NCBI GenBank assembly: GCA_002361595.1
Contig: DETJ01000039.1
Coordinates: 960 to 64,959 of the forward strand
DNA length: 64,000 nucleotides
Source: Patescibacteria group bacterium UBA3291
GTDB lineage: Bacteria; Patescibacteriota; Gracilibacteria; Absconditabacterales; Absconditicoccaceae
Direction: 5' to 3'
The notes under the pieces are model-generated. The model saw only the letters and a program-made list of their open reading frames with translations, was not told the DNA's origin and did not search any database. Shown piece after piece: positions 24,061 to 56,668 of the stretch (position 1 is its first letter; every line of letters begins with the position of its first letter). The translations under genes were made by a program, and so were the position numbers.

Positions 24061-24190
24061 GTCATTCTGAATGAAACGGAGTGAAATAAAGAATCTTATG
24101 TGTTGTGTGTGATACGCCTAAGATCCTTCACATTCGTTCAGGATGACTATATGATGTAATATGGATTCTTCGCTGTCGCTCAGAATGACG
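24061..24190. repeat. Cluster of three REP-like units (GGATTCTTCG-N-CTCAGAATGAC family), one inverted relative to the other two
   Basis: Units: 24061..24095 gtcattctga...aaagaatc; 24121..24147 agatccttcacattcgttcaggatgac; 24163..24190 ggattcttcgctgtcgctcagaatgacg. The same unit recurs at 33997..34066 and inside the giant gene. Confidence 0.7.
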
Positions 24191-24196
24191 TGAAAA

Positions 24197-24796
24197 TTAC
24201 TCAGTCTTTTCTTCTTTTTGAACAAAAAATTTTTTTGGATTTTTCTCCTTATGAACTGTAGGACTATCAATCTTTTCTATGATAGCATCCAAAACTTTAT
24301 CTACATTCTGACCAGTTTTTCACGAAACACAAATAATTTCATCAGCTGGAATTCAGATTACATGTTCAATTTCTGCTGCTACTCTAGCAGGATTTGCAGC
24401 TGGAAGATCAATTTTATTCAAAACTGGAATAATTTCTAATCACTGATCAATTGCCTGATAAAGTGTTGATAAAGTCTGAGCCTGAATTCACTGACTTGCA
24501 TCTACTAGTAAAATTGCTCACTCTACTGCAGCAAGTGAACGAGAAACCTCATACTGAAAATCTACATGACCTGGAGTATCTATCAGATTTAATTCATATC
24601 ATTTCCACTGCATTCTAGCAGGAGTAAGTTTGATAGTAATTCATCTTTCCTGCTCAATGTCCATTCTGTCCAAAACCTGACTATGTTCTAGTTTTCTCAC
24701 TGTTCACGTAATTTCTAGCATTCTATCTGCTAGAGTAGATTTTCCATGATCAATATGTGCTATTATACAAAAATTACGAATATGTTCTGTAGACAT
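24197..24796 (-). CDS. lepA: LepA/EF-4 N-terminal GTPase domain only (truncated; possibly a remnant)
   Basis: [45 protein letters not shown] and LNKIDLP are present. Similarity ends after IDSP, and the ORF stops 20 codons later. Domains II-V are absent. Confidence 0.75.
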
Positions 24797-24825
24797 ATTT
24801 TATCTCAAAAATATATTTTAAATAA

Positions 24826-31278: not shown

Positions 31279-31797
31279 ATGGAAATTCAAAAATCTGTAC
31301 AAGAATATTTAGATTGAGCTGATAAAAATTGAGCTTGAGAGACTGTAAAAATCGGAGATAATATAACAGTTGACTATATTTGACGTTTAGAAGATGGGAC
31401 AGTATTTGATACAAGTGTAGAATCAGTAGCTAAAGCATGCTGAAAATATAATGAAGCTAGAGATTATACTGAGTGATTAACTTTTGGGGTGTGAGCTGGA
31501 CAGATGATTAAATGATTCGACGAATGAGTAGTAGGTATGAAAGTATGACAAACAAAGACAGTTCAATTTGGACCAGAAAAATGATATGGACAGCGTAGAG
31601 AAGATTATATCATGACTTATTCTGCTGAAGAAGTATGAGATTTGAGTAAATTTACTGAATGACAAAGAGTTTATCTATGAATATGAGCTGCAGCATTGAT
31701 TACGAAAGTGACAGATAAAGAATTGACTATAGATTTAAATCATGAATTAGCAGGTAAAGATTTGATATTTGATATAACTATTAAATCGATTAATTAA
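31279..31797 (+). CDS. FKBP-type peptidyl-prolyl isomerase, paralog without signal peptide
   Basis: [17 protein letters not shown]; GAGQMIKGFDEGVVGMKVGQTK. The last 60 nt are identical to the upstream paralog. Confidence 0.85.
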
Positions 31798-33871: not shown

Positions 33872-33882
33872 AATTTTTTTAT

Positions 33883-33979
33883 AGCCCCTCAATCCTTCGG
33901 ACAGCTCCCCTAGCAGGGAGCAAAACTTGAAAATTAAGATTTCTCCCCTGATAGGGGGAGTGGCGAAGCCGAGGGGGTT
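33883..33979. repeat. GC-rich inverted pair of ~38-nt palindromic elements (REP doublet-like)
   Basis: agcccctcaatccttcggacagCTCCCCTagcAGGGAG and the inverted ctcccctgatagggggagtggcgaagccgagggggtt. Each contains its own hairpin. The outer CCCCTC/GAGGGG and CTTCG/CGAAG segments can also pair. Confidence 0.7.
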
Positions 33980-33996
33980 AATGGTGAGATACTTAT

Positions 33997-34066
33997 GGAT
34001 TTTTCAATTGAAGTCTCAGAATGACAGTAAAAAACCTAAGATTCTTCGATTTCGTCTAGAATGACG
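33997..34066. repeat. Two intergenic REP-like units of the GGATTCTTCG-N-CTCAGAATGAC family
   Basis: ggatttttcaattgaagtctcagaatgac and aagattcttcgatttcgtctagaatgacg. Confidence 0.65.
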
Positions 34067-34291
34067 TGTGAAGAATTTTTTTAAAATGTAAAGATTGACA
34101 AAAATATTAATTTATAATTATATTATACACAAAGTGATAAAAAATGGTTATCAGATAAAAAATTGATATAAAACCTAGTTTAGAACAAGGAAATTTTACA
34201 CATATTTTTTGAAAATTTTTTAAGAAAAAACAGCTTATGAAAATTTTTTAAAAAAAGTCAACCCAAAATTAGCGTTATTTTTTTCAGATTT

Positions 34292-34320
34292 TTGCAAAAT
34301 TTTTCTTTCTGTGCTATAAT
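34292..34320 (+). promoter_or_regulatory. Sigma70-like promoter of the giant gene
   Basis: TTGCAA, a 17-nt spacer, then TATAAT. GGAAGGA (Shine-Dalgarno) lies 5 nt before the ATG at 34361. A second TTGACA box is at 34095. Confidence 0.55.
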
Positions 34321-34360
34321 TAGGTATGAAATATTTTTAGTCTATTTCATGGGAAGGAAA

Positions 34361-37300
34361 ATGAAAAAGTTAGTGAATGTAGTTACACTCGTTGTAATGG
34401 TGAGTGTGAACACGATGACGCCTTTTACTTATGCGTTTGCGCAGTATGATGAGCCTGTGTATTCACAGGAAGTCGTAGAAGTATCGGATGATACGGCAAA
34501 TTCCCAGATATCTGGGCAAGCTACGGCTGGCGACTCATCTAGTGAAACGTGATATGAAGAAAATATCCAGGGTGAATCACCTGTGGATTTTTCTCTAAAT
34601 ACGGAATCACAAACTAGCGCAGAAGTGGATTCTTTGGCTTCGTCTCAGAATGATGGAGAAGTACAAGATTCTTCGCTACGCTCAGAATGACAAGCGTGAT
34701 GAGAAGAAGATTCTTCGACTTTGGCTCAGGATGGCGAGACACCTATGGATTCCTCACATTCGTTCGAAATGACGGATGAGCAAGAAGAGGAGGAAGAATT
34801 GGATTTCACTTGAAAGACCGTAGCAGCTGTGACTAAAATGCTATGATGAAACTGGGAAACTGATTCTGATGGATATGCTGAGGCATTAGGAATCGAAAAT
34901 TATCAAGGTTATCCAGAACAAAATGAAATAATCAGAAATTATATGGTAACTAATAAAACCCTTCCTGAAAAATGACAAAACACACAAGATTTTCATCCAG
35001 CTCAGCTGGACAAGCTTCGTTCAGAATGACAGGTATGAAGTGAATGAGATACACAAATTTCAGATGATGAGGATGGAGAAGATGATGAAGATCCTTTGCC
35101 TGAAGAATGAGACACACAAGATTCTCAGCTAGCTGAGTGAACTTCGCTAGACGCTCAGAATGACATCGAACAGCCAGAATGAGAAGATGAAATGTGATTC
35201 TTCGATGAATTATGAGAAGGAATTCAGAATTTGTTTAATAAAATTAGATATTTCTTCACAGATGAAGAAAATGAATCATATATAATATATAGTGAAGATG
35301 ATAATGATATATGAACTATTACATTAAAAGATCCAGAAACTGCGGCTACTATCACTATTATGGATAGAAATCTATGAGCTGAAAAAGTAAATGACTATGG
35401 ATATTATTTTCAATGGTGAAATAATCACGGAGTAGAAGAAGTAAATTCTACAAACAAAACAACTATTAAAGCTATTTATGATGATAGTTATTATGCTAAA
35501 TGATATGATGGTAATGGTTTATTTATAGTATGAGCCAAAGATTACCGAGAAAATGGAAATCATTATAATAATTTATGGTGATGAGATTTGAAAGAACAAT
35601 ACAAGCAGGCAGCATGTCCTGCATGATACCATGTACCAACTGCCAAAGAATGGAATCAGTTGATGAGTATATGGTGAAAGATTCATACACAGGATGTATC
35701 TGTGGATGAAGAATGACAAAATGTTTCACAGACTAGATATACAGCAAATTCATCAGAAACTAAGATAGCTTCATTTAAAGATCAGGCACAGCAATGTGAA
35801 GAATCTGACACTCAATGTGTGGATGAAGACAATTTTAGTGATATAATCAATATTTTATCATCAGAACTCAGACTTCCTTTAGCTGGAGGTTATGATGAAG
35901 ATGGTAAATATTATGATGAATGATGAATTTATTGGACATCTACAGCCAGAGATGGAGAAAAAGCATTAATTTTCGATATTGATGCTTATTTTGGCATTAA
36001 TGGAGATGACAATTTGGGTTATAAAGCTCAAGGTCATAATATTAGATGTTTCCAGAATGTGACAGAGCGAGATGCTGGAGAAGATATTCAAGATTCTCAG
36101 CAAACTGAGCAAGCTCAGCAAGCTGAGTGAACTTCAGCTGATGCCTCTGAATGACAGGGTGATACAAACAACAACCCGGGTTCAGCCTCAATGACTGACC
36201 AGGATTGAAATGGTGAACAGGATGAGAATGAAGTAGAACCCGGGTTGAATGTGGAAAATTCTTCAGAATGACAAGCTGGAGATGATGAACAAGCTAAAAC
36301 AGATTCTAATATATCTGTTTTAGATTATCTTTTTCATGAGGGAGTCGGTGACTCGGCTTCCTCTCCTTTCCCAGGAGATGAAGGGGATAATTTAGAACAA
36401 AGTTTTACATGAGATGACACACAAGATTCTCAGCTAGCTGAGTGAACTTCTCTAGACGCTCAGAATGACGATGTGCAGGTAGAACTTGACAAAGCACGAG
36501 CAACACTCAATGTAGAACCAATTACAAAAGCTGAAAGGTACAACAGAGTAACGGTAAATGTAGAAGCTCCAGCTGGAACTTTCCCTCAAGGAACTTATGC
36601 AAACATCAGACCAATTGTATCTACAGTCAGACTAGATGAAATCAAAGGACAGATTTCAGAGGAAGATAACACAGTATCAGAAAACTCTGAAGTAGTAGCT
36701 TTTGATATTACATTCATGTACAAATTGAGTGATGGTACAGAGGTAGAAGTGCAGCCTAAAGAAAACACAGTAAAGGTGGAATTTAATTATGAGGATAATG
36801 ATAATCTTTCAAAAGCTGACGAAAATGACTCTCAGGAAGTAAAGATTTTCCACTTGGATAATAAAGATGAGAATGGTGAAAAAGTAGATAGATGAGAAGA
36901 AAAAGTAGTAGATGTGACAAATAAACAGGAAAGTGCAGAAGATGGTATTGTAGTAGCGGATGCTGAAAGTTTCTCAATCTATGTACTTACTTTAAGTGAT
37001 AATTCACATACTTTAACTCTTTATCCAAATTGAGGTACTTTTACAAATAATAATATAATTATAACATGACCATGTGATCAAGAAAATGATCCATCATGTT
37101 CTGGAACAATCACTGTTGATGGTAACTGAGTAGTAGAAGAACCTGTGGTTACAAAAACTAATTATAATTTTGCTGGATGGTATACAAGTACGGATGGTGG
37201 TACAACATTATCTGATACGGCTTTTGATTTTGATACTCCAATTACAGATGATATTACACTTTATGCTAAATGGACAGATTATGTGATTACCTTTGATACA

Positions 37301-40300
37301 GATGGTGGTAGTGATGTAGATCCTATATTTGTAAATGATGGGGATACAGCTACTAGACCAAAAGATCCTACTAAAACATGAAATTATATGTTCTTATGAT
37401 GGTTTGATGCTGCATCGTGAGGAAATAGATTTGAATTTGAAGATAATCTTATTACTTCAGATAAGATTCTTTATGCTCACTGGGCTGAATTTGAGAAGTT
37501 GAATTTCACATGAGTGGTAAAAATTTCAGGATATCCAGATGGAATGGCAACAGTTACGATTATGGATAGAAATTTATGAGCAACTGAAGCATGAATATGA
37601 ACAACAGCCTCAGCAGATTCATATGGATATCTTTATGAATACTGAAATAATCATGGATTTTCACTTGTAAATAAAAGAATTCCTAATGAATATATAAGAA
37701 CAGACCAAGTAGATGTAACGGATTATTCGTGGGAGAATCCATTCTATTCTAAATATTATATAAAAAGGAGTGATAACTGGATGACATCATCTTCTAATAA
37801 AAATTTGTGGTGATGAGCAAATGATATTTTGACAAACTATTATTGAGAAAATATAGATCCTTCTCGTAGACAATGACCATGTCCAGAATGATATCATATA
37901 CCATCTGTGAAAGAATGGTATGATGTAGTTGATATTTTATTTCAGAAGTATGATATTGATGAAAAAACGGATAAAAATTATAAATATCCTGAACAAGTTT
38001 GAAAAAATCCTAAAACTGTTAATGAAGTGAAATATATGTTATGAGATTATTATGATGATATAGAACAGGATTTGAATTTAGTATATTTCTGACGTATAAA
38101 AGAGAATGAAGTCGCAGTTGGTAGAGATGCAAGTTCTGATGATCCGAGAGCTCCATACTGGACATCAAGTGATCATAATAGTAAAGCATTTATTATAGAG
38201 TTTTGATTAAAAGCTAAAGCACTAAGTTTATGATGATTTGAAGAACCTAAACCAAGTGGTTATTGAGTTCGTTGTTTCAAGGATGTACCAGATTATTGAA
38301 TGGTAAAATTTGAATTAAATGGATGAAATTGGGATGTAGAGGATGAATATTTGGCATATAAAAGAGCTGAAGGAATTGAGTTACCATCTGAACAACCAGA
38401 AAAATATGCTTATAATTTTGATGGATGGTATACAGATGATTGAACTTTTGAGGATGAAGTAGTCGATGGAAGATCATTAGATTCAAATGTGACTTTATAT
38501 GCTAAATATGAACCTAAAGATAAATATCTGATAAATTTTGTGGTTGAATGAGCAGCTAGAAGTAAATTGTTAATGGAATGAGAAATCCCTTCTTATGATA
38601 CAAGTTGGCCAGAGCCAGCTAAACCAGATCAGGGTGAATATTCTTATAGATTTGATGGTTGGAATGATGGAACTACAAAATATGACTTAGGTGAAGAATT
38701 ACCTGCTGTTACAGGTCCTGCTACATATACAGCAGTTTTTGAGCAATATATGGTAGATAGGCATAGAGTATCCTATGATATAGATGGAGATGGTCATGAA
38801 GATAATGTAGAGTATGTAAGTAAAGTAGAGGGTGAAAATATTATTACTTTACCAGTAGCTCCAACTAAAGAAGGATATGATTTTGCATGATGGAAAGCTG
38901 ATAATGAAGAAAATGCTAGAGAAGCTGAAAGTTCATATACAGTTACAGGAGATGTAGATTTTACAGCTCTGTGGACACCACATGATTATAGTATAGCGTA
39001 TGACTATGATGGATGAACAGTATCTCAGACTAATCCTACACATTATAATCTTGGTAATAATTCGGTAGATATACATTCTCCATCTAAATCAGGTTATAAA
39101 TTTGTATGATGGAAAGAATATTCTTGTAATGAATCTGATGTGGCTAATTGTCAGAATTGGACATTTGTAAGAGATGTGCTTGTATATGGAGATCCAACTT
39201 CTATTGTAATATGAGGAATAGGACATAAAAAATATGTGGCTCAATGGGTAGAAAATGAGGTGACATATTCAGTGATTTGGCTTGATGATAATCACTCTTA
39301 TATGGGTATTTCGAATGTGCCATTAAATACTATAGCCTCTACAATTACAAATATACCAAATACGGCTAAAGAAGCAGATGCTGAATATACTTATACTTTC
39401 CTTAACTGGACAAAGAAGAGTGGTTCTGATTTTGTAGATGTCGATCTGAGTCAAGAAACTATAACAGATAATATGATATATTATGCGAAATATCAAAAGA
39501 CTAAAAATAAATATTCAGTGACATTTGTAGGTGAGGATGAAACTACAGTTTTACAGGAATCTACTCAGTATGACTATGGAACAACATCAGAAAATATAAC
39601 TATACCTACTGCTCCAGCTAAGCAGTGATATACATTTGATGGATGGTTAAAGAAAATAGGTGATGGTGAATATTCATCTGAAGTGGTAGATATGTCTACA
39701 GAAGAAGTGCAGGCGAATGTAACATATAAAGCTCATTATAGTCCAATTACAGCTGAATATACAATTACATTTGTACTATGAAATGGAGAAAGTGATGTCG
39801 TAATAACTGGACATGAATGAGATTCTGTTATGGCACCAGCTAATCCTACTAGAAATGGATATACATTTGCTGGTTGGAGTCCAACTGTTCCAGCTACAAT
39901 GCCTGCTCATAATGATACAATTACAGCTCAATGGACAGCTAATCAATACACAGTAACATTAAATATAAATTATTGAGAAACTCCTGCAACAAGTGAAATA
40001 ACAGTAACATATGATGATACTTATGGAAACTGATGATTATCAAATCCTACGAGTAGAGCAGGATATACATTTGATGGATGGTATGATGCTGAAACTGAAT
40101 GAAATAAGGTTAAAGCTGATACAGTAGTATCTACAGCAGCTGATCATATTTTGTATGCACATTGGACAGCAGATCAGCATTCAATTACATATAATAATAC
40201 TAAGTGAGCAGAAAATACAAATCCTGCAACGTTTACTACAGATACACAGACTATTAGTCTGAATAATTTGTCAGTAGCTGGATATACATTTAATGGATGG

Positions 40301-43300
40301 TATGATGCTGAAACTGAGTGAAATAAAATAACTCAAATTGTACAGTGAACAACAAATGATGTAGTATTGTATGCTCATTGGACAGCAATACCATATAGTA
40401 TAATTTATACACAAGTGCCAGAAGGTTATGTTGCAACAACTTATAGTTATACGATAGAAAATTCATTTACTATTCCAAATCCTGCAAGTGTAGTATGACA
40501 AACTTTCAAAGGATGGAGAGAATATGTAAAAATTGGTGAAAATGAATGAGAACCAATATGGGAAGAACCTAATCCATGACAGATATATTATAATGCTAAT
40601 GGTATTACAATACAATCGTGAAATATTTGAGATAGAAAATATGAAGCTCAATGGGAAGTAAAAACATATACAGTATTTTGGGTAGATGAAGATTTAGAAA
40701 TTTTGGAGACAGATAATGATGTAAATCATGGAAGCCATCCACAATTTGATGAAACTACTCCAACTAAAACAGATACAGCCGAATGGGATTATGAATTTGA
40801 GACATGGACAAAAAATGGAGTAGATGTTGATATAACTACAGAAACTGTTACATCAAATGTAATATATAAAGCTAAATATTCAGAGACAAAGAAAGAATAT
40901 ACAATTACTTTCGTAAATGATGACAATTCACAATTATCAACTCATGATTATGAATATGGAACAGCTGCAGCTACTATACAGCAGCCTACGGCAACAAAGG
41001 ATTCTACAGCTCAGTATAGATATGAATTTGCAGGTTGGAATCCAGCTCTTGCTCCAGTCACAGGACCTCAGACATATAAGGCTACTTATAATGAAATTTT
41101 GAGACAATATGCAGTAACATTTGTAAATGAAGATGGATCTGATTTACAGTCTGCTACAATGTTTGACTATGATTCACATCCTATTTATAATGGTCCGACT
41201 CCTAAAAAAGTAGTAGATGGTGGTTTTAGTTATTCATTTGATGGATGGTTGAAGAAGGTATGAGATGGAGATTTTGGTACTGATGTTATCAGTGATTTAA
41301 CATCGGAAGAAATTAAGGATACAACAATTTATAAAGCTCATTATACTCAGAGTCTATTTACATATAATGTAACATTAAATCCAAATGGACAATGAAGTGT
41401 AGATCCTTCAATTATTGTTGTAACATATGGTAGTACATATGGTAATTATGATGGACAATCTCATGAAAAATTACCAGAACCTACATGAGATGGTTATGAT
41501 TTTGTATCATGGAATACACAATCAGATGGACAATGAACTACAATAACAGCATCTACATCGGTATGACTAAGTGCTAGAGATCAGATTCTTTATGCTCAGT
41601 GGACACCAAGTGATTATGATCTTGAATTTGTAGATGATAATGAGAGTACTCCATTAGTTCCAAAGACGACTTATACAATTGAAGATACTATAACACTTTC
41701 AGTTCCTACTAAATGAGGATACACATTTATTGGATGGAAAGAGTATGTAGATGGAGTTTATACTAGAGCATATTTAGCTAATGATCTTCCTCTTACTCTT
41801 CCAGCAGGAAATATTTGAGACAGAAAATATGTAGCTCAATGGAATCTGAATGGACATGTAGTAATATGGTTAGATGATGATCAAAGAGTTTTGGATATTG
41901 ATACAAATATACCAGATGAAACTTTGGTTACAGAAATAGAGCCAGCTGAACCTACTAAAGCTCAGGATGATCAATATACATATACATTTGATAAATGGTT
42001 AAAAGAGGTAATAGGTGGAAATCCAGCTGTAGTTCCAGATTGGGATCATGAGAGAGTAACAGCTGATGTGAAATATCAAGCCAGTTATCAACCTCATATT
42101 AGACAATATTCAGTAACATTTGTAGGTGAGAATGGTGAAACTGTTTTACAGCCAGCTGCATTATATGATTATGGAACAACAGCTGCTAATATCACTAAAC
42201 CAGCAGAACCTACTAAAGCAGCCACAGCTGCACATACATATACATTTGTATGATGGAAAGCAAATGGACAGTGAGAACCTATTCCTACCGTTAGCCTTCC
42301 AAATGTAACATGAAATGTGACATATTGGGCATCATTTACTGAAACTACAAATCAGTATGAAGTAACATTTGTAGATGAGAATGGTACTACTGTTTTGAAA
42401 GCAGCAACTCAGTATGATTATAATACACCAGCAGCTTTGATTGAGCAGCCAGCTACACCTACTAAGGCAGAGACACTTTCACACACATATACATTTGCTG
42501 GTTGGAATCCAGCTTTAGCAGATGTAACAGCAGATGCTACTTATACAGCTACTTATACATCCACTCCAAAGCAATATACTATTACACTTAATCCAGATGG
42601 TGGAGTCATTGAATGAGCAGCTACAACCAAAGAAGTAACATTTGGTTCTACTTATTGAGAATTGCCAACTCCTACGAAACTTGGATACACTTTTGGTGGA
42701 TGGTTTGATGCTGATGATACACAGCAACAAAACGAAATAACATCAGCTACAGTAGTGACGACAGATGCTATAAATCAGACACTTAAGGCTAAATGGACAG
42801 TACAAAAATTTAATATTAGATATCTTGAAGATGATAGACAAACTCCAGTGACTGTGTCTGATCCTATGACAATATATACAGTAAAAGATTCTATAGTAAT
42901 TAAAAATCCTACAAAAGAATGACATACATTTATTGGATGGAAAGAGTGTGTAGGAAATGATTGTTCTACAGCATATTTGAAGGATGGAAGTAGTTCAATT
43001 AAAATTCCAGCATGAAAAACATGAGATAGAGATTATTTAGCTATATGGAATGTACACTGACATGTAGTAATTTGGGGAGACTATAATGGTGTAGTTTTGG
43101 AAATAGATCCAAATGTAGATTATGGAGATCCAGTTTCATATGATGTAGAGGATGAAGATCACAATCCAAAATATCCATCTAGAGAAGATACAGCTGAATT
43201 TGATTATGAATTTATAGGATGGACAGACTGAGACAAACATTTTTATCCTATAAATGGAACTCCTGCTATTCCAACAATGTGAGATGCTGATATAACCTAT

Positions 43301-46300
43301 ACAGCTACTTATTCTGAAACAACAAAAAAATATACTATTACATTTGTAGATGCAGATGATACGGAATTGTCAAGTAAAGATTATGAATATGGAACAGCTG
43401 CTAGTGTTATAGTTAAACCAGCATTTAATATACCATCTCCAACTTCACAGTGTGCAGAATATCAGGGGGCATGGGATAAAGAGATAGTAGAAGTGACATG
43501 AGATGAAACATATAAGGCAGAGTATACATGTAAAACTCCTGCTACATATACTATTACATGGAAAAACTATGATGGAAGAATTTTGGAGACAGATGAAAAT
43601 GTTCCATACTGAACATTGCCAGATTATGATGAAGATGCTCACTGAGTACCTACAAAAGATTTGCATGATGGAAAAACATATCTTTTTGAGACTTGGGATC
43701 CTGCTGTTGATGTAGTTACAAAAGATGAAATTTATACAGCAACTTTCACTGCCAATCCAAATGCGTATGGAGTAACATTCAATCCTAAGTGATGAATAGT
43801 AAATCCAAACTATAAGGTAGTAATAAATGGAGAAGCTTATGGAGATTTACCAACTCCTACAAAAGCTGGTTATACATTTGATGGATGGTATTCAGATGAT
43901 GGAACATTCGCAAATGAAGTAAAATCTACAGATACATATACTTTGACAACAAATCAGACTCTTTATGCTAAGTGGAATATAGTAAGTTATAATATTACAT
44001 ATCAAAATGTTGAAGCTAGTTATATAGAAACAGCTCCAGTTACATATACAGTTGAATCTGATGATATTGAAATTCCAAATCCAACTAGAGATGGATATAC
44101 ATTTAAGGCATGGAAAGAATATGTAAAAAATGGTAATTATGTACCATGAGGGGATGAACCAGAGTGGATATTCGAAAGAGACATACTTAGAGATGGAGAT
44201 AATGATATTACTTTACCTGTGTGAAATACATGAGATAGAGAATTTAGGGCTCAATGGGATATAAATCGTTATAAAGTAGTATTTAAGAATTATGATGATA
44301 CTATATTAGATGTGCAGATGTTGGATTATGGAACGCCAGTTACAGCTCCAGCTAATCCTAGCAAACCTAATTCATCTAATGGTCAATTTAGATATGAATT
44401 TGCAGGATGGAAAGCAAATTGAGAATGAGATTTAATTCCTAAAACATCCACTCTTCCAGTAGCGACAGAAGATGTAGATTATATAGCTCAGTTTAATGAG
44501 ATTACTAGAAAATATACAGTTACATTCCAAAATTATGATGAAACTGAATTACAGTCAAGCGATGTAAATTATGGAACAGCTCCAGTTTATGCAGGGGAGA
44601 CTCCAACTAAAGCGAGTACATCACAGTATTCATACACATTTAATGGATGGACAGATGGAACTAGTGAATATGCAAAGGATGCTACTCTTCCAGATGTATC
44701 GTGAGAAACTACTTATACAGCAGTATTTACTCAATCTCCAGTAAAATATACAGTAACATTTAAAGATTGGAATGATGAAATTATTAGTGCTAAAGAATAT
44801 GGTTATGGAACACATGTTGCAGATATAGTTAAACCAGCAGATCCTACTAGAGATGGATATACATTTGCAGGTTGGAGTGAAATCCCAGAAACAATGCCAG
44901 CTCAAGATGTAACAGTAACAGCTACTTATACTATTAATTCATATATAGTTACATTTGATTCTGATGGAGGAAGTGCGGTAGAAGCTGAGACACTAGAATA
45001 TAATACACCAGTTTCTAGACCTACAGATCCTACTAAGGAAGGATATACATTCTCTAAATGGCAAAAAGTAGATGGACAGACTCTTTCAGATTATGATTTT
45101 GCTACACCAGTAACAGCAGATATTACATTAAAGGCAATCTGGACAAAGAATACTTATACAGTAGTATATAAGGATGGAAATAATGATATAACAATTCCAG
45201 ATGCTACTACTAGTTATACAATTACAGATCAAATCACAATTCCAAATCCAGAAAAGGATGGATATACATTTATAGCATGGGAGGAATATGTATGTACAAA
45301 AACTATTAAATCTGAATGTACTTCATCTGATCGAAAGCATACTAGAGATATTCTAAAGTCAGGAGAATCAATTACAATTCCAGCATGAAATATCTGACAT
45401 AGAGAGTATAGAGCACAGTGGAATATAAATAATTATGAAGTAATATTCCAGAATTATGATAGAAGTATCTTGAAAGTACAGAATTTAAATTATGGAGCTT
45501 CTGTAACTGCTCCAGCTGATCCTACTAAACCTGCAGATGCTGAGAAAGTGTATATATTTGATGGTTGGCAAGTAGATGGAGCTGGAGATGTTATTGCGAC
45601 AGCAGATCTTCCAACTGTGTCATGAGATGTACATTATGTAGCACATTTTACAGAATCAGCAAATCAACATACAATTACGTTCAAGAATGATGATGGAACT
45701 GTTTTACAGTCTGGAAAAGTAACTTATAATGAGGCTCCAGTTTATGCATGACAAACTCCAACTAAAGCAAATACAGCACAGTATTCATATACATTCGCTG
45801 GATGGACTAATGGAACTACTGAATATTGAAAAGATGATACACTTCCAGCTGTAACATGAGAAGCTATTTATACAGCAATTTATACTTCAACTGTAAATGA
45901 ATATACAATTACATGGAAATCAGATGCTGATACAACTATTGATACTACGACAGTAGCTTATGGACAAATGCCAACTCATGCTATACCAACTAAAAATGGA
46001 TTTACATTTGATGGTTGGGATCCTGCAGTAGCATTTGTAACATGACCAGCTACTTATGTTGCTACATGGAGAGAATATGAATTGCATTCTTTCTACACAA
46101 AGTGAGGTGATCAGTTTGCTGTAGCATTATATAAAGATGATAAATCATTTGATATTTCGGCTACAGAGCAGGTAAATGGAGGTATAAATGATAGAGCATT
46201 AGCACAATTCTTATTATGAGCTGATGCCGTTGCAGATTTAACAGATGAAGAAGTTAGTGAATTATTAAATAACACACAATTTGAAATTAAAGATATTTCA

Positions 46301-49300
46301 GATTTATGATGAGAAGTATTATTCTTATGATTTACTAATTCAGAAGACAAACCACAGACTAAATGATACTGTTCAGATGCAGGATGTGATTATTTCTCAA
46401 GTTTAGATTCTGATTTGAAAGTGAATGATGCAGTTAGAACTAAATGAATGAATTTAACAAAGGTACAGAAACCATCATGGGTAGATGAACCAGTTAAAAA
46501 TAATAATAAATATAAAGAAGTAAGAGATGCTTCAAACAATTTGAAATGATTTGTAGTATTAGTAAATGATGGATATCTATATGTTCCAGTAATGAAATAT
46601 ACAGTTACATGGGAAAATGCAAATACAACATTGGAGACAGATCAGAATGTTCCATATTCAGCTACTCCAACTTATAATGGAGCTGAGCCAACTAAAGCAA
46701 GAGATGATCAATATACATATACATTTAAATGATGGAGTGATGGAACTGTTTCATATGCAAAGGATGCTACTCTTCCATGAGTATCTTGAAATGTAACATA
46801 TACAGCTGAATTCGATAATACAACAAATAAATATACAGTAAAATTTGTACAGGAAGATGGAATTACACCAATCAAAGTAGATGATAAAGATTCTAAAGAT
46901 TATGATTATGGTACATCTGCTGATGATATAATTGTGCCAGAAACTCCAGCTAAAACTGGATGGAGATTTACTGGATGGACTCCTGAAATTGAAGATGTAA
47001 CAGCAGATGCTACTTATAGAGCAACATATGCAATCAATCAATATACAATAACATTTGTATTAGGAAACGGAGATGAAAATGTTGAAATTACTCAGAATTA
47101 TGGAACAGAAATTACAGCACCAGCTGATTTTACAAGAGAAGGATATATATTTGATGGTTGGGATGTAGAAGTTCCTGAAACTATGCCGGCTGAGAATAAG
47201 ACTATTACAGCTAAGTGGACAGCTAATGAATATACAGTGACATTCAATTCTGGAGAATGAGCAACAGTAGATCCAGCAAGTAAAACAGTAACATTTGATT
47301 CTACTTACGGAGATTTACCTATTCCAACTAAAAAAGGATATACATTTAATGGATGGTATGATGATGAAACTGAATGAAATAAGGTTAAAGCTGATACAGT
47401 AGTATCTACAGCAGCTAATCATACATTATATGCTCAGTGGACAGCTAATGAGTACTCTGTAACATTTAATCCATGAGAATGAGCAACAGTAAATCCAACA
47501 AGTAAAACAGTAACATTTGATTCTGATTATGGAACTTTACCAACTCCAGTTAAAAATGGATATACATTTAATGGATGGTATACAGCTGCTACAGAATGAA
47601 CAAAGGTTGAATCTGATACAGTAGTATCTACAGCGAGTGATCATATATTATATGCTCAGTGGACTATCAATACATATACTATAACATATGATTATGCTGG
47701 ATGAACATTGTCAGACTGAGTTACTAATCCAAATGCATATAATGTGGAAGAATCAGTGAAAATATATGCTCCAAAGAAGACATGATATACATTCAAAGGA
47801 TGGAAAGAATATGTAAAATCTGGAGAAAATTCACGAACATTTGTTCAAGATATCTTTGAATCAGGAGAGTCTATAACAGTTTTAGCATGAGCTACATGAA
47901 ATAAGAAATATGAAGCTCAATGGATACAAAACACATATACTGTAACATTCTATCCTAATGGATGATCTAATATTGATTCTCAGAGTGTATTGTACAATGA
48001 TAAAATTGAAGTTACCACAGCATTACAAAATTTCGCAAATAGTAAAGAATGATATACTTTCAAGGGATGGTATACTACATCTAATTTCGCAGAATGAACT
48101 GAATTTGATTTTAATACTCCAGTGACAGACAGATTAAATCTTTATGCTAAATGGGATAAAGATCGATATACAATTACATATCAATTGAATGGTGGAGAAT
48201 TGACTAATCAATTAGCTCAATATAGTATAGATTTTGTCAGTTGGACAATTCTTAAACCAACTAAAGAATGATACACATTCAAGTGATGGTCTGATGTGGA
48301 AAGTGATATCGAATGAATGCCACAGACTATTTCATTGACTAATCAATGGTTTAGAGATCATGGATTCAAGAATAGAACATTTGTAGCTAATTGGGAGATT
48401 AATCATTATACAGTGAAGTATATGGATGGAGTAGATGAATTGGTAGATTTGAGAGATACAGTAGATCATGGAGATACTATTTCACCTTTACCAGTTCCAA
48501 CTAAAGAATGATATACATTCGTTAAATGGTATAAAGAACCAAAACTTATAAATGAATGGACAGCTACTGACACTGTTACAAGTGATACGACATTATATGC
48601 TAAATGGAGAAAGTATACAGTTTATGGACCATTCTATATGACAGATGGTACAAAATTTAATATAGCATTATTTGATGATGACGGAAGTATAGATATTGAA
48701 TGAACTAAAGCTAATAATGATCCATCAGTTATTACACCAGAGCGTGAACAAGGATTACGTTATTCACAGGCTGAAGTAGTTGAACTTCCAGAATTGTGAG
48801 ATGTATTATTTATCAAATCACCACGTCCTAGTGATCCAACAAAGTCAGATACTAAATGATTCTGTTCTACACAGGCATGTAATTATTTCGCATCAGAAGG
48901 TGCTGAAAGTGTAACACCAGAATTCAAATCTCAGGCAATGGACACAACTAATCCTGAATGACCATCATGGACAGATGGTGCTACTAATTATATGAAGTAT
49001 CATGAAGTCAGAGATGATAATGATAAATTAAAGTGATTCACAGTATTGGTAAGTAAGGGTAATGTGAATGGATATATTTATGTACCAGTTAAGCAATATG
49101 AAGTAATATTTGTGGATGAGAATGGAACTCCAGTTCTAAAACCTGTTACACAGTATGGTTATGGAACTCCAGCTGCTGATATTGTGAAACCAGCTGATCC
49201 TACTAAGGAGGCTACTCAGCAATATACATATACATTTGCCGGATGGAATCCATCAGTTGCAGAAGTAACAGAGGATGCTACTTATACTGCTACTTATACA

Positions 49301-52300
49301 TCAACTGTAAATCAGTATGAAGTAATATTTGTAGATGAAGATGGAACTGAGTTAAAAGAAGCTACAGCATATGATTATGAAACGGCTGCTGCAGATATAG
49401 TTAAACCAGCTGATCCAGAAAAGGAGGGATATACATTTGCAGGTTGGGATCCAGAAGTTGTAGAAGTAACAGATGATGCTATTTATACTGCTACATATAC
49501 AGCTAATTCATATTCAGTACATTTCGATAAGAATGATATAAAAGCTACATGAACTATGTCAGATCAGTCATTCACATATGATGAAGCAAGTAAAGCATTG
49601 ACAGCAAATACATTCTCTAAAGAAGGATATACATTTGCAGGTTGGGCTACTTCAAGTGATGGAGAGGTTGTTTATACAGATGGACAGTCAGTTCAGAATT
49701 TAACATCAGCAGAGGATGGTGTTGTAAATCTTTATGCTAAATGGACAGCTAATACTGATACACCATACATAGTAAAACACTGTAAACAGGATTTAGAAGA
49801 TGAAACTAAATTTGAAGATTGTGAATCTGAAGATAAAGAATGAACAACAGATACAGATACAGCAGCTGGAGCAAAGACATATGAATGATTTACAGCTCCA
49901 AGTGTGATTACACAGGAAAATATTGAATGAGATGGAAGTACAATTGTTGAAATAAGGTATACTAGAAATTCTTATACATTGAGTTATGAATATACAAATA
50001 CTCCAGAATCAACTATGCCAACTTTGCCAGCAGTTGAAACATATAAATTCTGAGCTTCTATTACATTGGCAGAAGTTCCATCAATGAATGGATATACATT
50101 TGAATGATGGCAGGATTTCCCTGAAGGAAATACAATGCCTGCTAATGATGTAACTGTAAAATGAACATGGACACCAGTAAAATATACAGTATCAGTTTTG
50201 ACTAAAACAGATGCTGAAGATTCAGCATTATGATGAGTTGTTTATGGTGCTGGAGACTATGATTATAAGAGTGAAGTTACATTGTTTGCTATACCAAATG
50301 AATGATATGACTTTATTGGATGGACATGGGAATGACAGGATGAATTAGTAAAACCACAAGTTAAGATTATTCAATCATTATTAGCTAATCAAACGCTTAC
50401 AGCACATTTCCAGACTAGTGAACATACTGTAGAATTTGATAGTGATTGATGAACAGCTAGACCTACACAGACTATTAAACATTGATTGAAGGTAATAGAA
50501 CCTGAAGATCCGACTAAAGAATGATATACATTCAATGGATGGTATAATGGAAATGATGAATATAATTTTGATACTCCAGTAACTTCAGATCTTCAATTAA
50601 AAGCACATTGGACAATCAATCAATATACAATCACGTTTGATACAGATGGTGGAACTGAAATAGCTCCAATTACTCAAGATTATAATACAGCTGTAACAGC
50701 ACCAGCAGATCCTACTAAAGATGGATACACATTTGATGGTTGGGATAAGGATATCCCAGCTATAATGCCAGCTGAAGATATGACAATTACTGCTCAATGG
50801 AGTATTGCTCATTATGGAGTAAATTTAGTAGATGATGATCACTCTACACTTAGTCTTATAAGTCATGAAAGTGGAGAAGATATTCAGTATGGAGAAACTG
50901 TTAAAGTTAGTGTTTCATTTGATGATCGTTATCAGTTAGATTCTATATCTTCAAATGAAGTAACTCTAACTAAAGAATCAGATTCTGTATATAGTTTTGT
51001 AATGCCTGCATGATGAGTTGTAGTTACATTAAAATCAAAACCAGTAGAATATAGAATAAAATATAACTGGATAGGATGAGCTTTGGATGATGGAGAAGAG
51101 AATCCAGATACATATAATATAGAAAATTATGATAATCTAGTATTATATAATCCAAGTAAACAGTGATCTATATTTAAATGATGGCAATTGTTTGGTGGAG
51201 AATTCTTTGATGGAGAATGATCACATACAACACAAGTAGAAATTGATTCAGATGAAATTTGAGAGCCTCAGACATTTAGTGCAGTATGGGATGAAGAGGT
51301 TTATCCTATTACATATCATCTATGAGATGAAATACTTGGTATATATTGGGTAAAATATGATAGTTATGCTAATTATATTTCTCAAACTAGAGAATGATAT
51401 GCATTTGATGCGTGGTATACTGATTCAGATTTTGAACTTGAACATAAATACAATTTCTGAAAAGTGACATGACCACTTCATTTATATGCAAGATGGATAG
51501 CATCAGAGCAGACATATCATGTATATCATAAATACTTAAAAGCTGATGGTTCGACAGAAAGAACTCAACATGTACAGTATGCTGTTCATACAGATGATTA
51601 TATTCCTGAAGTACCAAGAAATGAAGATGCAGTGAATGATGGATATTTATTGCCAGAAGTACAGCATATAAGAATTAAAGCATGATCAGATAATGAGGTT
51701 ATTTATATATACGAGAGAGCGCCATTTACTATTACTTATAAGGATGGTAATAAACAAATAGATAAAAAAACAATACTTTATGGAGCAGATATTCCGACTA
51801 TGGTAGCTCCAGTGAAAGAATGATATACATTTGATGATTGGTATTCTGATTCAGAATTGACTCAACCTTATGAGATTCCGGAAACAATGCCGGCTGACAA
51901 TATTGTAGTGTATGCTAAATATGATATAAATAAACATACAGTTAGATATATGGACGGTAATAGAGTACTTCAAAAATTTGATAATGTAGAATATGGATCA
52001 GATTTCCCTACTCTTTCAGAGAATCCTTCAAAGGATGGATATGATTTCGTAGGTTGGGAAACTATTCCAGCTACAATGCCAGATCGTGATGTAGATATTC
52101 AGTCGATATGGGATGCACAGATATTTACTGTTACATTTAAGCATGAAGATGGAACAACTCTTCAGTCAAGTAGTGTAGCATATGGACAGAATCCAAGTTA
52201 TAATGGAGTGACTCCAACTAAACCAGCAACATTAGAGCATATGTATACATTTGTATGATGGAATGATGAAACGACTACTTATGCTCCAGAACAGACTCTT

Positions 52301-55300
52301 CCAGCTGTTTCATGAGATACTGTGTATACAGCAGTATTTGATGAGGATACAAGTAAGTATACAGTAACATTTGTGGATGAGGATGGTGAAACTGTTTTGA
52401 AAGCGACAACTCGATATGATTATCAAACGTCTGTTGCAGATATAATTAAACCAACTAATCCAACTAAAGCGGCTACAGCTGAATATACATATACATTTGG
52501 TGGATGGGATCCAGCTCTTGCTCCAGTGACACAAAATGTAACATATATGGCTACTTATACTCAGACTCCAAATACATATACAATTACATTTAATACTGAT
52601 TGATGAACTCCGAGAAGTTCGATTACAGCAGCATATGGAACTGATATAACAGAGCAGTTGCCAGCAGATCCAGAAAAACAGTGACATCATTTTGATGGAT
52701 GGGATAAGGTTATTCCAGCTACAATGCCATCACATGATATGACTATCACAGCTCAATGGACAAAGTATTATTATAATTTAACATTTAATGCTGCATCTCA
52801 TTCTAAAGTAACTAAGAAAACAACTTCTCAGGATGGTACTTATGCATATAATGATGAAGTAGAAGTCTCTGTTTCAGTAGATGATGGGTATAGATTGAGT
52901 AATATTACAGCTGTAGCTACTACAGCACAGTGAGATCAGGAAGTTAGGCTATATGATCAGTGAAACGGAGTATACTCATTCTTTATGCCAGCTAATCCAG
53001 TGGTTATTTCAACAGAGGTAGAGGCTATTGATTATGGAATTGAATATGATTTGGCAGGTGGAAGTGTGGATGATGAATATCCAGATAGTTATGATATGGA
53101 TCATTTAACACTGACATTGAAGAATCCTATTAGAGAATGATATACATTCAAATGATGGAAAGATGAAAAATGAAGAAATATTAATGCAGGAAATACTACA
53201 ACTACTATTAATATAAATTCATCTGATAAATCAAGTAAGCTATATACAGCACAGTGGGATGTTATTGAATATAATGTGAAATATTATGTGGATGGAATTA
53301 TTAAATGAAATGAAAAAGTTTCGCATAATGAGCAGGCTGATATAACTACTTATAGACCAGAGGTACAAGAATGATATTATTTTGATGGATGGTATTTAGA
53401 TTCACAGAAAGAAAATAGATATACATTGGATGGTGTAGTTGCAGATATTGAATTATATGGATTTGTAATTGCATCAGATCAGTGATATCTAGTAAAGCAT
53501 AGATATGAAAAATTGGATGGATGATATGATGAGATGCAGATTCCTGTAACAGATGGTGTAGTGACTGATCAAATAGTTTCACCAGAATTTGAACCTAAAG
53601 ATTGATTTAAAAATCCTAGTGCTAGAAAGGTAATACAAATTAGGCCTGGATGACTATTGACAAATGAAGTAATCTATGAATATACTAGAGAGAGTTATCA
53701 GGTGACTTATAAAAATGATGGTGAAGATGATCAATATAGAATGGTTAAATTTGAAGATTATATTCCAGTCTTAACTGTTTCATCGAAAACTGGACAAACA
53801 TTCAAAGGATGGTATAAGGTTGAAAATGATGAAGTTACAGATGAAAAATTGACAAATCTGACTACTATGTCTACATCTCCTGTAGTATATAAAGCTGTAT
53901 GGGATGATGAAGAATATACTATTACATTTAATGTGGATGGAGGTAGTGTAATCAATCCAATTACTGGAAAATACTGAGATCCTATTTCAGTGGATGCACC
54001 TACTAAACCTGGATATACATTCGCATGATGGGATCCTGCACTTCCAGACAAGATGCCTGCTGAAAACATGATAGCTACAGCTCAGTGGACTATTAATCAG
54101 CATAAAGTTACATTGACAGATTCAGATCATGTAACATTGAATTATTTAACAGTTCCTGATGCTTGAAATAAATATGATTATGCATCTACAGTATCAGTGA
54201 TAGCACATGTAGATGATGGATATGATTATACTGTGGATAGTGAAGAAGTAGATTTGATTTACAAGTGAGATGGAGTATATCAATTCAAAATGCCAGATAC
54301 TCCAGTAACGATTAGAGCTACAGCTACGGCTAAAACTTATGATATTGATTATATATTAGATGGATGAAGTCTGCCACAGTGAGTATCTAATCCAGTACAT
54401 TATGGTCCTACAGCTCTTACATTAACATTGAATAATCCTGATAGAGATGGATATACATTCAAATGATGGAAAGATGAAACATGAAGATTATTCTATGATG
54501 AAGATTCAGATACTACACAGGTTACAATTAACAATTCTCCATTAGTAGATAAAACATATACAGCGCAATGGGAAGTTAATACCTATCTAGTTAGATTTGA
54601 GATGGATGGACATACTGTAAATCAGCAAGTAATTACTTATAGATGACATGCAAATTATGTAAATCAGTCTAAGGATGGTTATGAATTCCCAGGATGGTAT
54701 ACAGATCCAGATTTTGCACAGTGAACTGAATATAATTTCAATACACCAATCACATCAGATTTGGTATTATATGGAAAGTTTGTCGCTAGTGAGAGTGAAT
54801 ATATAGTTATCCATAAATATTTAAATGTAGATGGAATTACATATAAACCATATGTTGTACATCATACAGATGTTAAGACAGATGATTTTATAGCAGAAGT
54901 TCCTTTTGCACCGAGAGATTGATTTGTAAATCCATCTCCAAAGAGCATAAAGGTTATGGCTAATGCGGAGAATATTGTAGAATATGTTTATCAGAGAGAT
55001 TACTTCGATATTGTTTATGATGTAAATGGTTGAACTCCAGAAGTAGCTACTCAGACAATAATGTTTGGTACTAAGATTCCAGTTCCTGAAGCTCCAACTA
55101 AAGAATGATATACATTTAGATGATGGCAAAAACAGTGAACTACAGAAATTCTGAATGATAATACAATTCTCAATGATGCTCAGACAGTGACTTATGTAGC
55201 ACAGTGGTGAGAAAATGAATATACAATTACATTTGATACAGATGGATGAAGTGCAATAGATCCTATTACTCAGGATTATGGTACAGCTATTACAGTTCCA

Positions 55301-56668
55301 GCAGATCCAACTAAAGATGGATATACATTTGCAGGTTGGGTTCCAGCAATTCCAGCTACAATGCCATTGTGAGGATTGACTGTAAAAGCTCAATGGACAG
55401 CAAATAAGTATACAATTACATTTAATACAGATGGTGGAACTGAAATTGCTCCAATTACTCAGGATTATGATACAGAGATTACACCACCAGCTAATCCTAC
55501 TAAAGAATGATATACATTTGCTGGATGGAATCCTGCACTTCCAGCTAAGATGCCATTGAATGGATTGACTGTAAAAGCTCAATGGTCACTCGGTGGATTT
55601 ACGATTACATTTGATACAGATGGATGAAGTGCAATAGATCCTATTACTCAGGATTATGATACAGATGTAGTTGCACCAGCAGATCCGACTAAAGAATGAT
55701 ATACATTTGCATGATGGGATCCTGCACTTCCAGCTAAGATGCCTGCTGAAAATATGACTATTAAGGCTCAATGGACAGTTAATCAATATACAATTACATT
55801 TGATACAAATGGATGAAGTGCTATCGATCCAATTACTCAGGATTATGGTACACCTCTAATTGTCCCAAATCCTACTAAACCTGGATATACATTTAAGTGA
55901 TGGGATCCTGCACTCCCTGCTACGGTTCCTGCTGGAGATATCGTTGTAGTAGCTCAATGGGAAAAATCATGAGGAAGTAGCTCTGGAGGTGGAGGATGAG
56001 GTGGATGATCATCTAGAAGATCAGAAACTCCACAAGAGAAGGATGACAAAAAATCTGAAGAGAATATGCATGGTTCAGCAGATGATGAAGTAATCCAGAA
56101 TGAAGAAGTAGATAATTGAGATGCTGCTGAAGAATTAGTTATTGAGCCAGAAGCTTTATCTGCATATGAATGGGCTAGGAAATATGATATTACGACTATG
56201 AGTCCAGTTGAAAATGCAGATCCTGATGGATATGTACTTAGATGACATTTGGCAAAGATGGTTGTAAATTATATGGTGAATGTACTTTGAAGAGAAGTGC
56301 CATATGATGTACCGTATGAATGTGTAGCATGGAATGATGATCCATCAATTTGGGAGTCTGATGAGATTAGAGATTATGCAACAAAGTCTTGTGCATTATG
56401 AGTGATGTGAATACAAATGTGGAATAATGAATTTAAGCCAAATGATATAGTAACTAGAGCTGAATTTGGAACAGTGGTATCTAGAATACTATGGTGAGAT
56501 AAATATAATTCTTCGAATACTAAATCAAGATATCGATATACATTACATTTACGTGCTTTGAAGAAAGAGTGAATCATGACTCAAATAACTAGACCAATGA
56601 AATGGTTGGAAATTAGAAAATGGGTATGGGTAGTTATGATGAGGACACAAGAATTCTTGAATAAATAA
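34361..56668 (+). CDS. Giant secreted surface protein (about 7435 aa): signal peptide, acidic linkers, two Fibrobacter-succinogenes-type paralogous (FISUMP) domains, dozens of Listeria-Bacteroides repeats (Flg_new type), MucBP-like modules and an SLH-like C-terminus
   Basis: All 18 track ORFs checked between 36473 and 53977 on the + strand are in frame with 34361. Hand translation of about 5 kb (34361..39300) and of the C-terminus shows only TGA interruptions. The signal peptide is [27 protein letters not shown]. The recurring unit is P.KEGYTF.GW......FDF.TP.T.D.TLYAKW. The stop is TAA at 56666. Confidence 0.85.
34627..34774 (+). repeat. Four tandem REP-like nucleotide units embedded in the coding sequence of the giant gene
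   Basis: Units at 34627..34653, 34666..34691, 34708..34734 and 34747..34774 match the intergenic units at 24163 and 34038. They are translated as [27 protein letters not shown] and DSSHSFEMT. Confidence 0.7.
35320..36060 (+). other. FISUMP-type domain 1 of the giant protein
   Basis: [47 protein letters not shown] and GHNIRCFQN. Confidence 0.7.
37540..38285 (+). other. FISUMP-type domain 2 of the giant protein
   Basis: [47 protein letters not shown] and GYGVRCFKD. Confidence 0.7.
46078..46596 (+). other. Unassigned insert module, copy A, within the repeat array
   Basis: [13 protein letters not shown] ... GEVLFLGF ... [15 protein letters not shown] ... PSWVDE ... [28 protein letters not shown]. 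Confidence 0.6.
48614..49093 (+). other. Unassigned insert module, copy B
   Basis: [14 protein letters not shown] ... GDVLFIKS ... [15 protein letters not shown] ... PSWTDG ... [32 protein letters not shown]. Confidence 0.6.
56150..56665 (+). other. SLH-like cell-wall-binding C-terminal region of the giant protein
   Basis: After a GGGGGGGG/Ser spacer: [12 protein letters not shown]...[18 protein letters not shown] ... [15 protein letters not shown]...[20 protein letters not shown]. This follows the SLH-type pattern W...GI..G....F.P...ITRAE. Confidence 0.5.

Follow-up and report, generated by a model that had tools for sequence, protein, structure and literature searches.

What kind of element recurs both between genes and inside the coding sequence of a giant gene, where its copies are translated in more than one frame? 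The question is raised by a 64,000-nucleotide stretch of DNA from Patescibacteria group bacterium UBA3291 (contig DETJ01000039.1, positions 960 to 64,959; the window in all that follows), in which units of a short palindromic repeat lie in two intergenic clusters, A and B, and in the first part of a gene of 7,435 codons (34361..56668, + strand) that is read in genetic code 25, with TGA specifying glycine. An earlier reading of the letters alone (the sequence-only reading) had proposed a REP-like DNA or RNA element, inserted or expanded in a tolerant, disordered region of the protein. The answer put forward here is that the copies are probably those of a widespread oriented hairpin of the Ssn-related motif (SRM) kind, which entered the linkers of the giant gene, was duplicated and partly decayed there, and varies between strains.

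The repeat as a hairpin

The core 10-mer TCAGAATGAC is present in 8 copies in the window versus 0.30 expected, a count that 0 of 100 shuffles reach, and all eight lie at 24061-24189, at 34016-34025 or within 34682-36469. Beyond the window, a scan of metagenome contigs with the pattern GATTCTTCG-N(5-12)-CTCAGAATGAC matches >120 contigs, about 10 being expected by chance (our own estimate). The matching contigs range from 28 to 70% GC and come from many unrelated metagenome samples; the element is therefore not lineage-specific. An alignment of 83 copies has the consensus TGTCATTCTGAGCGAAGCGAAGAATCT, with an additional flanking T in at least 90%, and on the opposite strand the consensus TGTCATTCT-GA-GCGAAGC-GA-AGAATCT. 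The variable centre is a small stem-loop, the two sides of which change jointly (GCTTCGC, GCTGCGC, GCCTTCGGC, GGGCTTCGCCC, GGACTAAAGTCC). The functional-strand form can be written (T/C)GTCATTCT-GA-G[stem-loop]C-GA-AGAATC(Y). Its outer stem has 5 bp and is followed inwards by a symmetric tandem G.A step; inside this lies a short inner stem, in most cases capped by a GNA triloop. DNA mini-hairpins with GNA triloops of the d(GCGAAGC) type have exceptional stability, and stacking is good in tandem G.A steps; the architecture points to the strand that carries them acting as single-stranded DNA (ssDNA).

Covariation of the stems is indicated by a covariance model built from 83 fixed-length copies and run over 736 kb. 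In the alignment of its 148 matches, 99.3% of cells are paired, double changes occur in 5 of 7 pairs, and slid registers collapse. Compensatory double-change cells number 36 versus 2.8 in shuffles, none of 500 shuffles reaching the observed value, in an alignment that is, however, model-fitted and made up mostly of sequences found with fixed arms. At 2100-2450 of a code-25-like contig labelled Peribacteria (L150), units with the arms ATCGC/GCGAT, ATTGC/GCAAT and ATTCC/GGAAT lie side by side; with co-varied arm types thus adjoining, several subfamilies must coexist in one genome.

Within the window, the intergenic and genic sites listed in the sequence-only reading are all present. Its consensus, GGATTCTTCG-N-CTCAGAATGAC, describes real copies, of which only one (A3) matches it literally, the rest being variants; the spacer does vary, over a wider range than the 7-9 nt proposed, with units of 16 nt (G9), of 25-28 nt (the short form) and of 43-64 nt (the long forms G5, G6, G8 and G10). 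A strict structural scan (GTCAT, a perfect 5-bp arm, C) yields 14 matches versus 4.5 expected; seven of these are known copies and the other seven have AT-rich arms and are at chance level. Perfect 5-bp arms are retained only in A1, A2, A3, B2, G2, G6 and G10, the other copies being degenerate, and the (C/T)GTCAT flank and GAATC(Y) end are exact in A1, A3, B2, G2, G6 and G10. In a covariance-model scan only G2, A3 and A1 stand clearly above a noise floor of ~16 bits; the weaker copies were identified by clustering and by exact words held in common. Several candidates were set aside. A covariance-model match at 31633-31669 is a chance hit in a conserved FKBP-domain segment that encodes the same peptide in the orthologue; GATTCTTCG at 35196 is read GFFDE in a segment conserved in the orthologous contig L125; and loose-scan matches at 42887 and 48230 are at chance level.

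Cluster A sits between lepA and mscS, 10 kb from the giant gene. Its unit A1 (24061-24095) lies on the - strand, inverted relative to the other copies so that GATTCT..GAATGAC is read on that strand, and has perfect arms (27.9 bits). A2 (24122-24147, +) has the co-varied arms ATCCT/AGGAT and a two-tier hairpin fold, and scores 15.5 bits, at the noise floor. A3 (24164-24189, +) is the canonical intergenic copy, with the exact consensus (35.9 bits), and adjoins the stop codon of a truncated lepA. In a composite ssDNA fold of the cluster, A1 pairs with A3 and A2 (z -2.9). Cluster B lies upstream of the giant gene and consists of the degenerate B1 (33998-34025, +; 16.4 bits), which keeps an exact TCAGAATGAC, and of B2 (34040-34065, +; 16.7 bits), with perfect arms. 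Copies are thus restricted neither to the giant gene and its flanks nor, as will be seen, to one conserved reading frame.

Probable affiliation with the Ssn-related motifs

The nearest described family is that of the SRM, the founding example of which is the Neisseria NTS/dRS3; NTS (CGTCATTCCCGCGMAVGCGGGAATCYRG) and, more generally, SRM flank ssnA genes (Chenal et al. 2025, PMC11893778). SsnA, a 94-aa GIY-YIG protein of family cd10448, binds this hairpin and makes its cut on the upstream side. Its substrate is ssDNA alone, on one strand alone, and not RNA, and one-strand ssDNA binding and cutting have been demonstrated for the Neisseria and Wolbachia pairs (PMC11893778). The NTS-ssnA-NTS layout has been likened to an insertion sequence, and NTS cluster close to surface-protein genes, with 2% of the N. 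meningitidis NTS being genic (PMC11893778).

The element of the window is likewise an oriented hairpin of 25-50 nt with a (C/T)GTCAT 5' flank and a GAATC(Y) 3' end; it is multicopy, clustered in both orientations, mostly intergenic and found near surface-protein genes. At metagenome loci, as distinct from the window, it also flanks small single-domain GIY-YIG genes in a hairpin-gene-hairpin layout. In 7 of the 120 loci listed, an open reading frame (ORF) of ~95-110 aa lies 26-46 nt from a copy, and the proteins so placed are single-domain GIY-YIG proteins (PF01541 only). In L097 (28% GC), GTCATTCTGAGCGTAGCGAAGAATC stands upstream of the GIY-YIG gene and an inverted copy with the co-varied arms ATCCT/AGGAT downstream; L045 has its gene amid five copies, some in each orientation. 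These two contigs display the hairpin-gene-hairpin layout. A third contig, L042, has its GIY-YIG gene flanked by GTCATTCCCGCGAAAGCGGGAATC, which is the Neisseria NTS; the GIY-YIG proteins beside the variant are 43-48% identical to the L042 protein and have the catalytic pattern in common with it. The differences from NTS are that the variant has TCTGAG..CGAAGA where NTS has TCCCGCG..GCGGGA, that many window copies lie inside coding sequence and are translated whereas only 2% of NTS are genic in N. meningitidis, that the host uses code 25, and that no ssnA has so far been found in the window or in ~240 kb of related code-25 DNA. We class the element with the SRM as a variant subfamily, even though it escapes the search pattern published for these motifs.

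Among the candidates for a partner gene, a GIY-YIG gene on L129 (a contig with a distant homologue of the giant gene) was rejected as being of a different subtype and without flanking hairpins, and L097 was rejected as a code-25 example of ssnA, its real ORFs containing no TGA. A PDB search for a solved Ssn relative returned only spurious WD40 matches, and an NCBIfam search no specific family. Rfam gave no family at gathering or relaxed thresholds on clusters A and B; the sole related signal was RF02901 (Aggregatibacter sRNA 41) on an inverted unit pair at 10510-10670 of L045, at 44.5 bits versus a gathering threshold of 97. RF02901 may itself have been built on NTS-like hairpins.

The description REP-like can be sharpened: the place of the repeat is with the SRM (NTS/dRS3-type) rather than with the RAYT-associated REPs. 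The likeness to REP/BIME extends to short extragenic palindromes in mosaic clusters of alternating orientation that flank a gene for a single-strand-specific enzyme. The gene repeatedly found beside copies is different, however, coding for a GIY-YIG nuclease here and for a RAYT (IS200/IS605-type) Y1 HUH transposase with REP, and the conservation of the sequence extends across phyla, REPs being restricted to single species. With the Rickettsia palindromic elements (RPE; PMC10969869) it has in common that a palindromic family is read through in proteins without destroying them. RPEs measure ~100-150 bp and encode one conserved peptide in one frame in many unrelated genes (PMC10969869); the units here, in contrast, are 16-64 nt long, are read in three phases, and have their genic copies confined to the linkers of one gene family.

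Translation of the units in the giant-gene linkers

Any reading of the genic copies starts from the genetic code of the host. Scanning the window for frames of at least 150 codons finds 11 under the standard code and 57 with TGA as sense; the latter scan reveals a frame of ~7,490 codons at 34184..56668, and the frame of the giant gene is open only on that condition. In most genes of the window TGA outnumbers all GGN codons together, while Trp is still TGG, and in the GTPase domain of LepA TGA stands at universally conserved glycines (ERGITI, VEGA, QGIQAQT, SGKTG). TGA at these invariant glycines leads to the assignment of code 25 (TGA=Gly), as in the Gracilibacteria/Absconditabacteria group, to this organism. 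A near-identical contig is present in ENA and JGI metagenome assemblies, and the runs that contain the region are sheep, goat and bovine gut metagenomes. Since TGA is the main glycine codon here, two genes of the window look recently acquired from standard-code donors: thyA (13432-14226), with zero TGA codons, and a 987-codon gene at 60518-63526, with 8 TGA versus 64 GGN.

The product of the giant gene is a typical giant surface protein, with a signal peptide, acidic linkers, Fib_succ_major domains and many Listeria-Bacteroides repeats. The genic hairpin units, all in + orientation, are confined to the first 2.1 kb of the gene, where the linkers are rich in D, E, S and Q. All nine start in phase 0, with GAT TCT, GAT TCC, GAT TTT or AAT TCT; it is in the 3' half that the readings diverge. 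Four units end in the QND/QDG phase (CAG AAT GAC): G1 (34628-34654, read DSLASSQND), the degenerate G3 (34709-34735, read DSSTLAQDG; only 7.3 bits), and the long units G6 (35120-35164) and G10 (36425-36469). Another four end in the SEGQ phase (TCA GAA TGA C): G2 (34667-34691), the canonical 25-nt genic unit, which is read DSSLRSEGQ with an in-frame TGA and scores 50.2 bits; the long G5 (34988-35030); G8 (36092-36155), the longest at 64 nt, with two in-frame TGA codons; and G9 (36257-36272), a collapsed unit in which the inner stem is deleted and AATTCT abuts TCAGAATGAC. The degenerate G4 (34749-34774), the spacer of which matches that of intergenic A2, is read DSSHSFEMT, in the third phase (GAA ATG AC). 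The sequence-only reading was therefore right that the 3' half is read in more than one frame; the phases are three and not two. The phase differs between copies because each base pair added to the inner stem adds 2 nt, and the frame is restored downstream.

A 3' half read in three phases means that what is conserved is DNA and not a peptide. An ordinary acidic peptide repeat, with its DNA similarity due to recent tandem duplication only, might have been suspected from the D/E/S/Q-rich linkers and from the 88% identity of G6 and G10 over 69 nt. It would leave unexplained, besides the three phases, the intergenic and inverted copies, the co-varying stems, and G2 itself, which is identical at 25 of 25 nt to copies in metagenome contigs of unrelated organisms and the spacer of which (CTACG) is found 8 times elsewhere. 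Phase and distribution data refute this explanation, and we accord it an exceedingly small probability. The earlier proposal that the conserved unit is a nucleic-acid hairpin is borne out by the three phases, by stem covariation, by the unrelated intergenic sites and by the >120 metagenome contigs.

How the gene accommodates the units is in part a matter of TGA. In-frame TGA is found in six of the nine genic units and amounts to seven codons, each of which would be a stop in the standard code. TAA and TAG are absent from all frames of the canonical 25-nt unit. Read in the standard code, it has TGA as a stop in one frame per strand (DSSLRSE* and SF*AKRRI); read in code 25, its six frames are all open. 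The inverted genic copies, in L125 and L129, are translated in the other of the two frames that hold TGA. In the standard-code contigs L072 and L089 the unit's TGA serves as a stop: ssnA-like GIY-YIG ORFs end '...DSSLRSE*' inside the hairpin. At most 4 of 46 copies in standard-code low-GC contigs lie within an open frame of at least 200 codons. At least one such case looks genuine: an inverted unit pair at 2304-2332 of L024 (39% GC, standard code) is read through in a PDZ-like protein (VILRAEPEES...GSFTDVQDD), a probable in-frame insertion outside the code-25 lineage, and a tandem unit array at 1-651 of L014 creates a long open frame for a peptide of the (HPERSEGSF)n type, a likely source of spurious gene calls. 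The frames used by the genic units specify hydrophilic peptides and the other same-strand frames hydrophobic ones (ILRFAQND, FFASLRM), from which we infer selection for linker-compatible frames. The units are tolerated, it would seem, because an insertion disrupts no fold in the linkers, TAA and TAG do not occur in the unit, and TGA is glycine.

The GTCAT strand is the template strand in all nine genic copies of the window. This bears on a role at the RNA level, for example in ribosome pausing during secretion of the giant protein or in transcript stabilisation. The arms are complementary on either strand and the copies fall in the 5' 2 kb of a 22-kb mRNA, as such a role would have it; however, the favourable G.A step and GNA triloops are on the template strand and not on the mRNA strand, pairing is lost in many genic copies, close strains gain and lose units, and the published nuclease does not act on RNA (PMC11893778). 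A role in mRNA is accordingly judged very improbable, and the SRM-kind DNA hairpin remains the preferred identity of the element.

Unit turnover and the direction of spread

Comparing individual units in an orthologous giant gene, as the sequence-only reading had suggested, shows that L125 differs from the window unit by unit. The two are syntenic (FKBP genes, Polysacc_synt, then the giant gene), with an overall identity of 62% between the L125 protein and the first 880 residues of the window protein. Aligned by codons, the two genes have collinear, highly conserved folded domains, and linkers in which entire units are present in one and not in the other. L125 lacks full equivalents of G1, G5 and G10. 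At the site of G6, L125 has a short unit read SEGQ versus the long unit of the window read QND; around G8 and G9 it has three canonical 28-nt units, one of which aligns with the collapsed G9. L125 also carries an inverted genic copy. A G5-type long unit lies in its upstream spacer, where the orthologous spacer of the window holds B1, B2 and a GC-rich hairpin element, so that a single type of unit lies within the gene in the window and between genes in L125. At 7420-7422 of L125 an in-frame TAA stands where the window has GAA, homology resuming in the same frame; this may reflect a sequencing error, a nonsense allele or decay to a pseudogene.

Variation of the same kind is found at much shorter range. 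In ~98%-identical contigs from other ruminant samples the G5 region is replaced (34972->35076), an 18-nt deletion at 35124 turns the long G6 into a 27-nt short unit, a 15-nt insertion stands at the start of G1, and, in one variant, the G10 region is replaced (36416->36503). With whole-unit differences in L125 and strains while the domains stay collinear, the proposed insertion or expansion of a palindromic element in a tolerant disordered region has held up. The 18 nt lost from G6 correspond to a palindromic module (CAGCTAGCTGAGTGAACT and relatives) that is nested in the long units, G6 being a short unit plus this module; it is found at 35125-35142 and 36430-36447, in G8, and at 4939-5004 of L129. 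Present or absent between 98%-identical strains, the module may be a second small element.

Might chimeric joins, generated by a repeat of high copy number in the community, have placed the units in the gene? Depth in rumen runs is 3,500-9,300x over G1/G2 versus ~10-20x elsewhere, and many loose ends lead into foreign, often GC-rich sequence, from which it follows that the canonical unit is common to many organisms in these communities. An artefact of this sort is nevertheless scarcely credible: the 7,435-codon frame is open through all units, and independent assemblies (L125; runs X2, X3, X4 and X10) have units in the same gene at background depth.

On whether the element moved into the gene or out of it, relatives are informative. 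A scan of GTDB representative genomes for the FISUMP motif with TGA-encoded Gly gave 23 loci, mostly in metagenome-assembled genomes (MAGs) of Absconditabacterales type. All seven confident copies in other code-25 MAGs lie between genes, two of them as an inverted pair flanked by convergent genes, and they have the same extended flanks as the genic copies (ACACAA or CCTATG immediately before GATTCT); the flanks therefore belong to the DNA element. In orthologues further removed, the acidic linkers show no more than traces of units; the N-terminal linker of the distant homologue on L129 contains long-form units, some in each orientation. The linkers therefore predate the units, and colonisation has been lineage-specific. 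The reverse direction, in which the linker repeat is native coding sequence and the nearby intergenic copies, especially those of cluster B, are decayed relics from recombining surface-protein paralogues, draws on the resemblance of the B1 5' flank to that of G4 past the unit itself (family D4, 81% over 26 nt), on a longer flank common to the genic units, and on assembly-graph joints between units, by which units can recombine or be confused. Against it stand the same element 10 kb away between lepA and mscS, the intergenic copies with the same flanks beside unrelated genes in other code-25 MAGs, the >120 unrelated contigs, among them those of high-GC organisms that lack the giant gene, and the unit-free acidic linkers of more distant orthologues. 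Spread from gene to spacer is on these grounds unlikely.

The course of events that we favour would then be the following. An SRM-type hairpin, normally intergenic in this rumen code-25 bacterium, would have spread at the DNA level into the disordered acidic N-terminal linkers of the giant protein. Its units would there have turned over by duplication (G6/G10), by nested insertion and loss of the 18-nt palindromic module, by collapse of the inner stem between TC..TC direct repeats (G9, which aligns with a full 28-nt unit in L125), and by decay. The hairpins themselves may drive this rapid gain, loss, collapse and replacement of units, and so render the linkers variable between strains. What the data show directly is the identity and structure of the element, its association with GIY-YIG genes at other loci, its three-phase reading and the polymorphism of units; the manner in which copies spread, hairpin-promoted deletion and any part played by an Ssn nuclease in this organism are presumed.

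Several facts sit awkwardly with this account. A number of genic units score at or below the noise floor of the covariance model. Single units have weak predicted folding energies as ssDNA (z about -1), which, not being distinguishable from those of shuffles, are not used as evidence. The genic units have the extended flank GACACACAA in common, a feature as compatible with duplication or gene conversion within the gene as with repeated independent insertion, if not more so, and no target-site duplications or other transposition signatures were identified. An Ssn-type gene was not found in the 64-kb window or in L125-L152 (~240 kb of code-25 DNA). Finally, the published degenerate SRM search sequence, HGTCWYN(0-2)YYVSBRHN(0-5)WNVSBRGN(0-2)RNCYNB, gives 0 matches in the window, though a canonical NTS used as control is matched; it misses the variant because a tandem G.A step stands where NTS has further C-G pairs.

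What is already known, then, is the SRM/NTS family (2025, PMC11893778) and the existence of in-frame palindromic elements in Rickettsia (PMC10969869). What is new is a common sequence variant missed by the published SRM pattern, the presence of an SRM-type element in code-25 Patescibacteria, and the dense, translated, three-phase and strain-variable occupation of giant surface-protein linkers, partly enabled by TGA=Gly. The description of the Ssn/SRM system dates only from 2025; the variant is common in soils, sediments and guts. As a clear case of translated hairpins, the locus illustrates how the range of selfish DNA open to uptake by a proteome shifts when the genetic code changes, and it points to a DNA-level source of strain variation in giant surface proteins that are thought to mediate host attachment of episymbiotic bacteria. 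There are practical consequences as well: the units account for recurrent spurious peptides in annotation (DSSLRSE*, FAQND, LRMT), inflate depth and break assemblies. A more speculative notion, and a doubtful one, is that reassignment of TGA to Gly opened the hairpin's two closed frames (one per strand, both hydrophilic) and so made nuclease-target DNA into a linker building block, the template-strand hairpins of this giant adhesin-like gene serving as programmed ssDNA break or recombination sites that diversify the exposed N-terminus or restrict its replacement by incoming DNA, as has been proposed for NTS around Neisseria surface genes.

Two features of the neighbourhood deserve mention. The lepA gene (24197-24799, - strand) ends after 199 codons, with its GTPase domain only, right at hairpin cluster A; a search for the C-terminus elsewhere in the window found none, and the truncation abutting cluster A hints at rearrangement at the repeats. 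Upstream of the giant gene, at 33880-33980, lies a GC-rich hairpin pair (CTCCCCTAGCAGGGAG, TCTCCCCTGATAGGGGGAG) that is missing from the orthologous spacer of L125, has no Rfam match, and is raised in depth to 40-200x in rumen runs; it is probably another multicopy element.

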